From positions 14,864 to 46,863 of the forward strand of contig JBHLMI010000021.1 of NCBI GenBank assembly GCA_048938295.1: DNA of 32,000 bases, written 5' to 3'. Source of the stretch: Promethearchaeota archaeon. Lineage in GTDB: Archaea > Asgardarchaeota > Hermodarchaeia > Hermodarchaeales > Hermodarchaeaceae. The translations under genes were made by a program, and so were the position numbers. Below the pieces are notes generated by a model. The model saw only the letters and a list, made by a program, of their open reading frames with translations, was not told where the DNA came from and ran no database searches. Shown one piece after another: positions 29,630 through 32,000 of this stretch (position 1 is the stretch's first letter; every line of letters begins with the position of its first letter).

Positions 29630-30081
29630 GCCACATTCAACAAGGATTGCTTGACGTGCTCTCACTAGCTTTAGTCAATATGAACACGTTGTTGTTTACG
29701 CCTTAATCTGTAGAAGAGATTAATTCCAGGGCAAATAGATTATTCGAGGAAGAAGACACAAACAGGATTCCGCGCCTTCTACTACATGGTCACACAGATT
29801 CTAGATTTCCTCAAGGGAAGTCTTAGTGAATTGAAAAACCGTCTTCTTCTATCATGAATCGATTCACCTCTCCAAGAATGTGAAAGACTCTACTAACAAA
29901 AAGTCTTGCTGAAAAAGAAAGTGGTGGTCGTATACCCCAAGGACAATATCGCTCCAGAACCAGTGCATATAGCTCCTTTCGAAACTAACACACTTAGGCG
30001 GTACGTGGCGGCCCGCTCAACACCTCGCCGAAGCTCGATGCGTACACGGCCGCTCGTTCAAACCGGTCTTCTACCGGAGCC

Positions 30082-30149
30082 TTCGTCCACGGTTCACCGT
30101 TCTAGTCGCCTAGCCCAGTGTGGACTACTCATCCAATAACCATGGAGTG
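30082..30149 (-). other. Enlarged helix 98 / ES39-like expansion segment in 23S rRNA
   Basis: About 68 nt at the position of the short H98. Sense-strand pairings: GUCCAC/GUGGAC enclosing hairpins CUAG-GCGA-CUAG and ACGG-UGAA-CCGU. Confidence 0.65.
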
Positions 30150-30169
30150 GGTGACTCGTCTCAGGACCC

Positions 30170-30200
<31 letters not shown>

Positions 30201-30326
30201 GGGCACAGCTTGGCTGCCCGGCGATGCCCCATCGGACAACCGGTACACCATAGGCTGCGATCCGCCGTTCCTCTCGTACCGAGCGGACCTTCCCCTCAAT
30301 CACCCAACGCACCCAAAAGAGAGAAT

Positions 30327-30369
<43 letters not shown>

Positions 30370-30484
30370 TTAACAGGCGTACAGCCTTACCCTTGGGAGC
30401 TAATGCACCCCCAGGATAGGAAGAGCCGACATCGAGGAAGCAAGCCGCGGGGTCGATATGGACTCTTGCCCGCGACGACTCTGT

Positions 30485-31149
30485 TTAGGGTCCCAGGTCG
30501 GTGTTACTTGGTGAGGTATTGTTGTAATCGTTCGCGCTTCTCCGGGTGAGTTACCCCAGAAACTCGGTGGAGGAAGCGTGTGAGATTCTCGCGTCCTGTT
30601 ATGAACAATTGCCATACGGTTCTGTTGGGTGGCTTGTAATAGCCACAGTGAATTTTGTGGTGTTCGAGGATGTCGCCTGCAATTCGAAGCTTCTGGATGC
30701 TTTCATTGTAGATGCTGAATTGTGGTTGTCCTTCACTGTTTTGAGTGGCAGATCCTTCAGCGTCTGCAAGTCCTCGTAACCATGCCATTTGTAGTGTTGG
30801 TTTCCACATCCGAATGTCTTCGGGATGTTCATGGATTATTTGGATCTGTGATACTAGTTGTTTGTCCCACACCTGAATACGATGTTCAGGTCGGGTCTGA
30901 CGTGGTTTTACTTGGACTTCCTTATCTGGAAGCACATGTTCGAGTGCAGGCTTGATGATTTCGGTTAGCCATCGTTCCGATTTGGATTCGATGTCAAAGA
31001 CATATCCTTCTTTGCCACCCCGCCCGAGACGGGCGTCTTCGGATGCGCCTGCGAGATAGGCGATGGTATCATTGAGAACCATTGTATTCCAGAACTATCG
31101 TAGGCAATTGAGTATTTATTCGTCTCACTGTTCTCGTCCGGCCTGAGAA
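30485..31149 (-). mobile_element. Archaeal bulge-helix-bulge-type 23S rRNA intron (665 nt) between A2450 and A2451
   Basis: Sense 5' junction GGGG-UA^U-UCUCAGG and 3' junction CCUGGGA-CCCU-AA^A-CAG give a 4-bp helix, two 3-nt bulges and a 7-bp intron stem. Cleavage after the second bulge nucleotide restores GGGGUAACAG. Confidence 0.88.
30504..31082 (-). CDS. Intron-encoded double-motif LAGLIDADG homing endonuclease (192 aa)
   Basis: Motif 1 AYLAGASEDA and motif 2 AWLRGLADAEGS. It lies wholly inside the intron, on the same strand as the rRNA. Confidence 0.88.
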   Translation of the reverse strand: MVLNDTIAYLAGASEDARLGRGGKEGYVFDIESKSERWLTEIIKPALEHVLPDKEVQVKPRQTRPEHRIQVWDKQLVSQIQIIHEHPEDIRMWKPTLQMAWLRGLADAEGSATQNSEGQPQFSIYNESIQKLRIAGDILEHHKIHCGYYKPPNRTVWQLFITGRENLTRFLHRVSGVTHPEKRERLQQYLTK

Positions 31150-31663
31150 TACCCCTGGGGTAATTTTTCTGACGTGATCGACCCTCATCGGTAGGGTTCG
31201 ATCGTTCGCTAGGCCCTGCTTTCGCACCAGCGCTCGTTGCTTTTCGGAGCACTGTTAAGCCAGCTTTTACCCTTGCGCGCTACACGCGGTTTCTGTCCGC
31301 GTTGAGCTGACCTTTGGGCGCCCATGATATCTTTTCGTGGGCGTGCCGCCCCAGCCAAACTGCCCACCTGCTGGTGTTATGCACCGTTTGGTGCATTAAG
31401 AGTTGCAAACACTGAAGGCTGGTGTTCCATTGGCGACTCCACCACCCCCGCAAGGGTGGCTTCGACGTCTCCCAGCTACGCTCTGCATCAATGCCCGTAA
31501 CCCAGCAACAGGCTGCAGTAAAACTCCACAGGGTCTTCTCTTCCCTTTGGGTGTCCCTGGACTGTTCGCCAGGAGGTGGGTTCACCGGGCCGCAGGCGGG
31601 GACAGTGGGGACCTCATTGATCCATTCATGCGCGTCGGTACTTATCCGACAAGGCATTTGGCT

Positions 31664-31963
31664 CAGTTCTGTTACTTTCTTGAAAGCGAAGTGCCTTCAA
31701 TACTGACCTCGAATTCGAGGCGGGCATGCATTTCTGCACGCCTCCAATAGTCGCCTATTGGCTCGGACTATATCTTACTTCATTGCTGAAGTTCTGGCGT
31801 ATAGTCTCTGAGGATGTCTCTCCCATGGGAGAGATCTTTCCTGCTGATTGTCTCCACTTGTGTATTTTTAGGGGTCATTCCTCTGTCACCAGAGGAGTAT
31901 CCTAACACAAGATACGCGAGAGGTTCCAGCATATAGCCAGATTTTACTAAGGCAACTCTGTTC
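31664..31963 (-). ncRNA. Group I self-splicing intron (300 nt, no ORF) after U1931 of 23S rRNA
   Basis: Sense strand: 5' exon ends ...UAAGGU and pairs with IGS GCCUUAG (U.G at the splice site). Core elements are P AUGCUGGAA, Q AAUCAGCAGG, R UCAGAGACUAUA and S AAGAUAUAGUCC, with P3 UCUGGC/GCCAGA and terminal omega-G. Removal restores AAGGU|AGCCAAAUGCC. Confidence 0.95.
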
Positions 31964-32000
31964 ACCTTAAGAGAGTCATAGTTACTCCCGTCGTTTAACA

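Follow-up and report, generated by a model that had tools for sequence, protein, structure and literature searches.

Archaeal rRNA introns of the BHB type that carry LAGLIDADG genes have been known since I-DmoI, the enzyme of a Desulfurococcus mobilis intron, and the yeast mitochondrial omega intron, which encodes I-SceI, is a group I intron at L2449. The idea of rDNA targets common to archaeal BHB and group I introns has already been published (PMC2602781; PMC6125680). Vdi141.L1927 of Vulcanisaeta distributa, with I-Vdi141I, and Physarum PpLSU3, with I-PpoI, have a near-identical rDNA target and unrelated endonucleases (PMC2602781), and group I and BHB introns have been found together within one archaeal rRNA gene (Nawrocki, Jones and Eddy 2018; PMC6125680). 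The listing of Jay and Inskeep (2015) gives 16S rRNA introns for Desulfurococcales, Thermoproteales and Aigarchaeota alone, and it notes 23S introns in the two orders named first. For Asgard archaea, Penev 2020 mentions introns only in saying that known intronic regions were removed from the LSU sequences. The searchable literature yielded no account of BHB introns in Asgard rRNA, nor of any archaeal intron at 2449-2451, an earlier listing in intron tables being possible.

Here we describe a 665-nt insert on the minus strand of a 32,000-nt stretch of DNA (hereafter the window) from a Hermodarchaeia MAG. With a probability of roughly 0.88, we read it as an archaeal BHB intron in the recovered 23S gene of this MAG, one that would be spliced by EndA and RtcB and that encodes a homing endonuclease. 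It is a known kind of mobile element, at a site and in a clade for which searchable papers hold no description.

The 23S insert and its junction fold

The host MAG (Hermodarchaeia, Asgard) comprises 2.52 Mb and is 91.6% complete. Only one copy of the 23S region was found in it, and at this completeness the genome may have a further rRNA copy that lacks the intron. We observe that the minus strand of the window at 29982-32000 corresponds to the 3' third of an archaeal 23S rRNA (RF02540, 780 bits), with the gene truncated by the contig end, and that two large inserts break the alignment, one of about 300 nt near helix 69 and the other at 30485-31149. When the flanks of the latter are searched alone on the minus strand with the Rfam archaeal LSU model, the match to 2444-2541 stops at 31154 and the match to 2545-2630 begins at 30485. 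Across the junctions (marked here and below by a caret) the RNA reads ...UUACCCCAGGGGUA^UUCUCAGGCCGG...CCGACCUGGGACCCUAA^ACAGAGUCG..., and removal of 30485-31149 leaves CCCCAGGGGUA^ACAGAG, exactly as in an intron-less relative. Excision at 31150/31149 and 30485/30484 yields CCCCAGGGGUAACAGAG, the sequence of that relative (G024, locus L010), so that a conserved functional exon is regenerated, as had been claimed for standard cleavage; other members of the phylum have GGGGAUAACAG or GGGGGUAACAG at this site.

Positions in E. coli numbering were assigned from the E. coli sequence and the I-SceI site numbering (-7..+11). A2444 pairs with U2066 on the opposite strand of helix 74, and the numbering register is therefore sound. 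By the BHB cutting rule, the insert would sit directly after A2450, at the peptidyl-transferase centre, the catalytic core of the 23S rRNA. The mature rRNA would carry a G at 2448 (window 31152, minus strand), where most organisms have A; since the intron-less Asgard relatives L009, L010 and L012 share G2448, it is a natural variant in the phylum.

Next, we examined the fold at the junctions, all on the minus strand. The exon strand GGGG (G2445-G2448; 31152-31155) pairs with the intron strand CCCU (30487-30490) in a central helix H of 4 bp, consisting of one G.U and three G-C pairs, and all four pairs are present in each of the 11 tabulated sequences, including GGGA/UCCC in L032. The adjoining helix h' (31138-31148 with 30491-30501) is composed of 7 bp between UCUCAGG (31142-31148) and CCUGGGA (30491-30497), followed, past a single C.A mismatch (31141/30498), by 3 bp between CGG (31138-31140) and CCG (30499-30501). 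Between H and h' the 5' junction UA^U (U2449, A2450 and intron U1; 31149-31151) forms a true 3-nt bulge, whose third base is U or A among relatives and in which the BHB rule predicts a cut at 31150/31149. The 3' cut region AA^A2451 (30484-30486), with a predicted cut at 30485/30484, lies in the correct register and is not closed by an outer helix, and is thus a bulge by position only; depending on the intron family it reads AA^A, GA^A or AU^A. A second core stem is formed by GUGAG (31124-31128) and CUCAC (30511-30515), the latter strand lying within the last codons of the intron ORF. No exon-exon outer helix adjoining the bulges can form at the window junctions, and, because this helix h is absent, the motif belongs to the HBh' class. 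A distal pairing of 5 bp, observed in one Thor fold, has no conserved counterpart in the window. The original prediction had described a relaxed motif with a 4-bp junction helix, UAU and AAA bulges, a UCUCAGG/CCUGGGA stem continued by CGG/CCG and no obvious exon-side outer helix, and every one of these elements could be verified directly.

According to the warning of a recent preprint, chance often produces relaxed BHB classes when these are defined loosely. The window junction satisfies the stricter class of that preprint, which has four central pairs and a flanking helix. Among 62,630 mock boundaries of equal length on both strands of the window, two combined 4/4 central pairs with at least 7 contiguous h' pairs, and one of these two top-scoring boundaries was the real junction, placing the junction geometry far above chance. 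When the BHB fold was enforced in six introns, it lay 0.5-1.9 kcal/mol above the MFE, the competing structure being a small local exon hairpin.

The junction also covaries between relatives. In Thor-type introns, h' reads UCUCUAG/CUAGGGA and UCUUUAG/CUAAGGA, with three pairs altered on both strands, and the second stem changes as well (GGUGAGA/UCUCACC vs GGCGAGU/ACUCGCC), so that both stems show compensatory changes between Hermod and Thor introns. Together with the break in the LSU alignment and the verified fold elements, this covariation upholds the assignment of 30485-31149 to a BHB-type intron.

The alternative that survives best is the same BHB intron with both splice sites one nucleotide upstream, after U2449 and thus at the classic L2449 position, or in some other cutting register, and we consider it quite unlikely. 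An A precedes both splice points, and consequently cuts after U2449 or after A2450 give an identical mature RNA and 2450/2451 and 2449/2450 are equivalent in sequence; where a relative has a UAA bulge, the number of equivalent registers rises to three. The choice between them falls to the canonical rule, which cuts two nucleotides into each 3-nt bulge flanking the 4-bp helix and gives 2450/2451 in all four intron families described below. As to other registers, an alternative central helix GGGU/ACCC was rejected: it leaves GGGGUAUAACAG, which would lengthen the mature RNA by 2 nt relative to the intron-less relatives, and it also fails in the other intron families. The upstream sites (2449/2450) predict an excised circle in which CCCUA is joined to AUUCUCAGG, whereas cutting at 2450/2451 predicts CCCUAA joined to UUCUCAGG. 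The insertion had originally been placed between A2450 and A2451, one nucleotide from L2449; the insert does lie in this stretch, and it is the BHB rule that would set the exact offset of one nucleotide.

Splicing genes and the encoded endonuclease

We searched the genome for the enzymes on which splicing of such an intron would depend and found exactly two EndA-like loci, as well as an RtcB gene. The alpha subunit (L013:1222-1782, 186 aa) carries the Tyr/His/Lys triad and matches the catalytic subunit of A. pernix at 2e-45; it aligns free of gaps through the Crenarchaea-specific loop, where its K41 lies opposite the functional K44 of the A. pernix alpha chain. In the beta subunit (L014:1462-2052, 196 aa) the His is missing; its matches include structural subunits, although those to catalytic EndA chains are stronger. 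At the gene level this predicts an (alpha-beta)2 EndA with the L1 loop, with two paralogues, the triad in one of them and the loop lysine conserved, and it answers the architecture check that had been proposed for the host enzyme. Kaneta et al. (PMC5829648) describe an (alpha-beta)2 EndA with the L1 loop for Asgard archaea and attribute broad specificity to the loop rather than to the architecture alone. At the 3' cut site of the window, which no helix closes, cleavage depends on a broad-specificity enzyme, and the conserved loop lysine suggests that the host EndA may be one.

In the splicing pathway that we propose, the ends of the intron would pair in the precursor into a long irregular stem, with h' (7+3 bp) followed by a second stem of 5-7 bp. 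Pairing of exon G2445-G2448 with CCCU would then put U2449, A2450 and U1 into the 3-nt bulge and leave AA^A2451 where the 4-bp helix is open, and EndA would cut at these two places. RtcB would join the exons, restoring GGGGUA-ACAG, and would probably circularise the excised intron. The excised intron would carry the endonuclease of 192 aa, and cutting of intron-less rDNA alleles by the translated enzyme would drive homing. A working ribosome in these organisms would accordingly depend on tRNA-splicing enzymes.

It is also conceivable, though very unlikely, that EndA or another RNase excises the insert and that the exons are not re-ligated, leaving a fragmented 23S rRNA like that produced by bacterial intervening sequences. 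Fragmented rRNAs do occur in other organisms, but here the break would fall in the catalytic core, at A2450/A2451, and RtcB, which is encoded in this genome, naturally acts on the products of BHB cleavage. Furthermore, the characterised BHB introns of archaeal rRNA are, as far as is known, all spliced (PMC4496867). These observations favour a spliced BHB intron.

The intron contains an ORF of 192 aa (30504-31082, minus strand) with two LAGLIDADG motifs, assigned to Pfam PF14528 (E 3.2e-9). The motifs AYLAGxSEDAHLG and GLADAEGSAT are conserved in 23 homologues of 59-95% identity, D16 and E109 are invariant in the 15 homologues compared, and purifying selection on the ORF family is evident. The first motif is atypical (LAGASEDAR), its acidic residue preceding that of I-DmoI by one position. 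The AlphaFold (AF2) model (pLDDT 93.4) has two alpha-beta domains, and its motif helices, at residues 5-16 and 95-109, finish at D16 and E109, giving a pseudo-dimer with two LAGLIDADG helices of the I-DmoI type. The best PDB match of the model in Foldseek is I-DmoI (E 3e-10, TM 0.70, about 21% identity), with PI-PfuI and I-Tsp061I as the other best fold matches, all three enzymes being archaeal; I-SceI is absent among the 50 fold matches listed. A phmmer search of PDB sequences with the ORF reached I-DmoI at E ~0.1 only, and kinship with I-DmoI was therefore settled by the structure model. On this modelled fold and the conserved motifs, the protein is a candidate nuclease, probably a monomeric homing endonuclease of the I-DmoI type. 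Such an enzyme, with I-SceI missing from its top matches, fits the original prediction that the peptidyl-transferase target was colonised independently by a different class of intron. As a family with an unusual first motif, these endonucleases are candidate meganucleases for a highly conserved 23S rDNA target.

Relatives and unrelated introns at the same bond

We find the same intron family at the same site in Ca. Hermodarchaeum yapensis, in Thorarchaeota SMTZ1-45 and in five other MAGs. Endonuclease homologues of 61-64% identity are encoded in Thorarchaeota SMTZ1-45 and three other MAGs, and a scan for the junction pattern adds a fifth full-length copy and a truncated match labelled Odinarchaeota. 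Wherever the junction is present with these homologues, the site is identical. Genomes of the same genus as the window's carry ORF-less versions of 145-148 nt at this site (L002 in G002; L003 and L023 in G006, which is Ca. Hermodarchaeum yapensis; L004 in G011). These share with the window intron 19-28 nt at the 5' end and 27-31 nt at the 3' end, and they consist of the terminal stem and one hairpin, with nothing else. Their interiors have weak similarity to the 3' end of the ORF (z 4.0, 2.7 and 1.6 against shuffles), which suggests that the ORF may have been lost by deletion in these same-genus mini-introns.

Next, we scanned 400 Asgard genomes for the same site. The 23S region was recovered in 180 of them, and in at least 27 of the 180 the alignment breaks at exactly the 2450/2451 point. 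Beyond the Hermod/Thor family, three further introns lie at this bond, namely a Heimdallarchaeum family, an intron in G312 and an intron in G391, and no similarity among the four families was detected with blastn-short at E<=0.01; hence at least four sequence-unrelated BHB introns occupy the 2450/2451 bond in Asgard archaea. The Heimdall family comprises ORF-less BHB introns of 344-423 nt in Ca. Heimdallarchaeum aukensis PM71, H. endolithica PR6 and two Heimdallarchaeota MAGs (L042-L045; L035, L036), and of the 20 Heimdallarchaeaceae genomes with the region recovered, 17 show the break. Its h' is CUACAC/GUGUAG, its 3' cut region is GA^A, and an internal block of 50 nt is 90% conserved between distant members. 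The intron of G312 (L032) measures 114 nt and that of G391 (L031) 186 nt. All three unrelated introns combine a central helix of 4 bp with a 3-nt bulge and an adjoining h' in the same register, as tabulated for G312 and the Heimdall family and as read by hand for G391. G312 carries A2448 in its exon and, at intron position -6, U in place of C, a compensatory change that keeps the exon-intron pair.

Several other inserts were observed in the vicinity of this bond. In G391, a separate insert of 32 nt lies about 10 nt upstream, between CUUAC and CCCAGGGG. Four nucleotides upstream of the 2450/2451 bond, at 2446/2447, a BHB micro-intron of 31 nt is found in Promethearchaeota LW40_45 (L033/L047) and in a MAG labelled Odinarchaeota H3M.118 (L034/L046); its central helix is CCCG/CGGG, its bulges read GG^A and AA^G, and its hairpin of 6-9 bp shows covariation between these genomes. 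An insert of 70-335 nt is common in Asgard genomes of other families about 27 nt downstream, in the loop region of helix 89 near E. coli 2478 (for example L037 in G115, L038 in G076 and L039 in G141). Finally, an insert of about 100-150 nt is present near the position corresponding to window 30336 (roughly E. coli 2593-2601) in same-genus and same-family genomes (G012:C69:13368-13582 and G015:C187:3472-3786); this is another classic intron site, and it is empty in the window.

The relatives bear directly on whether the window insert could stem from faulty assembly or belong to an inactive pseudogene copy of the rRNA. The sequence does come from a MAG, on a contig that stops within the rRNA gene; nevertheless, the same junctions recur in independently assembled genomes, which for the second family include two complete Heimdallarchaeum chromosomes, the LSU model scores 780 bits on the exons, and the ORF family is under purifying selection. 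We regard an artefact or pseudogene as even less probable than a fragmented rRNA.

With regard to group I introns, neither the group I model nor any other Rfam family matched the insert at E<=10 when 30400-31250 was searched, and none matched at the gathering threshold in 11 related loci; no P3-P9 core is found in the insert, in agreement with the covariance-model check that the original prediction had set for itself. ORF-less introns of 114-148 nt at this bond are too short and leave no room for a ribozyme core. A group I intron does occur elsewhere in the gene, as an ORF-less element of about 300 nt at window 31664-31963 (minus strand), after U1931 of the same 23S (RF00028, 61 bits over 31744-31993). 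Its 5' exon ends in ...CUCUUAAGGU and its last base is a G, before AGCCAAAUGCC; L1931 is among the archaeal group I sites listed in PMC6125680. That the covariance models have missed a group I intron of the L2449 lineage in the window insert, self-splicing but degenerate or divergent, is barely credible: L2449 is a classic group I site, the L1931 intron is genuine, and an origin of BHB introns from group I has been proposed, going by the citation in PMC6125680, but RF00028 finds nothing in the insert at E<=10 against 61 bits for the L1931 intron, the 145-148-nt relatives are a terminal stem with one hairpin, and the endonuclease resembles I-DmoI and not I-SceI.

Taking the insert as a spliced BHB intron, the most interesting aspect is the repeated use of the 2450/2451 bond across Asgard lineages. 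The endonuclease-bearing Hermod/Thor family, its ORF-less derivatives and the three unrelated introns with exon-intron covariation offer a natural experiment on BHB recognition. A further-reaching possibility, which we think unlikely, is that 2450/2451 serves as a clade-wide landing site in Asgard archaea at which introns are kept because they are useful, with splicing by EndA and RtcB built into the maturation of the catalytic centre. If this were true, the ORF-less introns would make splicing part of ribosome maturation in many relatives of eukaryotes, and one possible use would be a folding checkpoint in which G2445-G2448 are kept off helix 74 until late in assembly.

Comparison with known systems

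The closest counterpart of the window intron is the I-DmoI intron of Desulfurococcus mobilis, which is likewise a 23S BHB intron, spliced by proteins, with a core stem built from its ends and a two-motif LAGLIDADG enzyme of about 190 aa. The two differ in host, Crenarchaeota in D. mobilis and Asgard here, their protein sequences are barely detectable as similar (phmmer E 0.1), and the first motif is LAGxSEDA in the window protein vs LLGLIIGDG in I-DmoI. The I-DmoI intron is inserted in domain IV, at about L1952, and the window intron in the peptidyl-transferase loop.

With respect to sharing a target with group I introns, Vdi141.L1927 is the published precedent, in which a BHB intron of an archaeon occupies almost the same conserved target as a group I intron of a eukaryote. 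There the target lies in helix 69 (L1925/L1927) and the enzyme is a homodimer with a single motif, whereas the window case concerns L2449/L2450 and a monomeric two-motif protein known from its sequence. Similar to the genes described in PMC6125680, the window 23S carries a group I intron (L1931) beside a BHB intron; that paper catalogues group I introns, and it contains no element at 2449-2451 and does not mention these positions. The yeast mitochondrial omega intron and the window intron both target GGG(A/G)UAACAG of the peptidyl-transferase loop, with insertion points that are one nucleotide apart or, within the ambiguity of the sequence, identical. Omega is a self-splicing ribozyme, while the window insert has no group I core, would rely on EndA and RtcB, and encodes an I-DmoI-like enzyme. 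Overall, the known picture of archaeal rRNA introns is left unchanged by this locus and is extended to a new site and a new clade.
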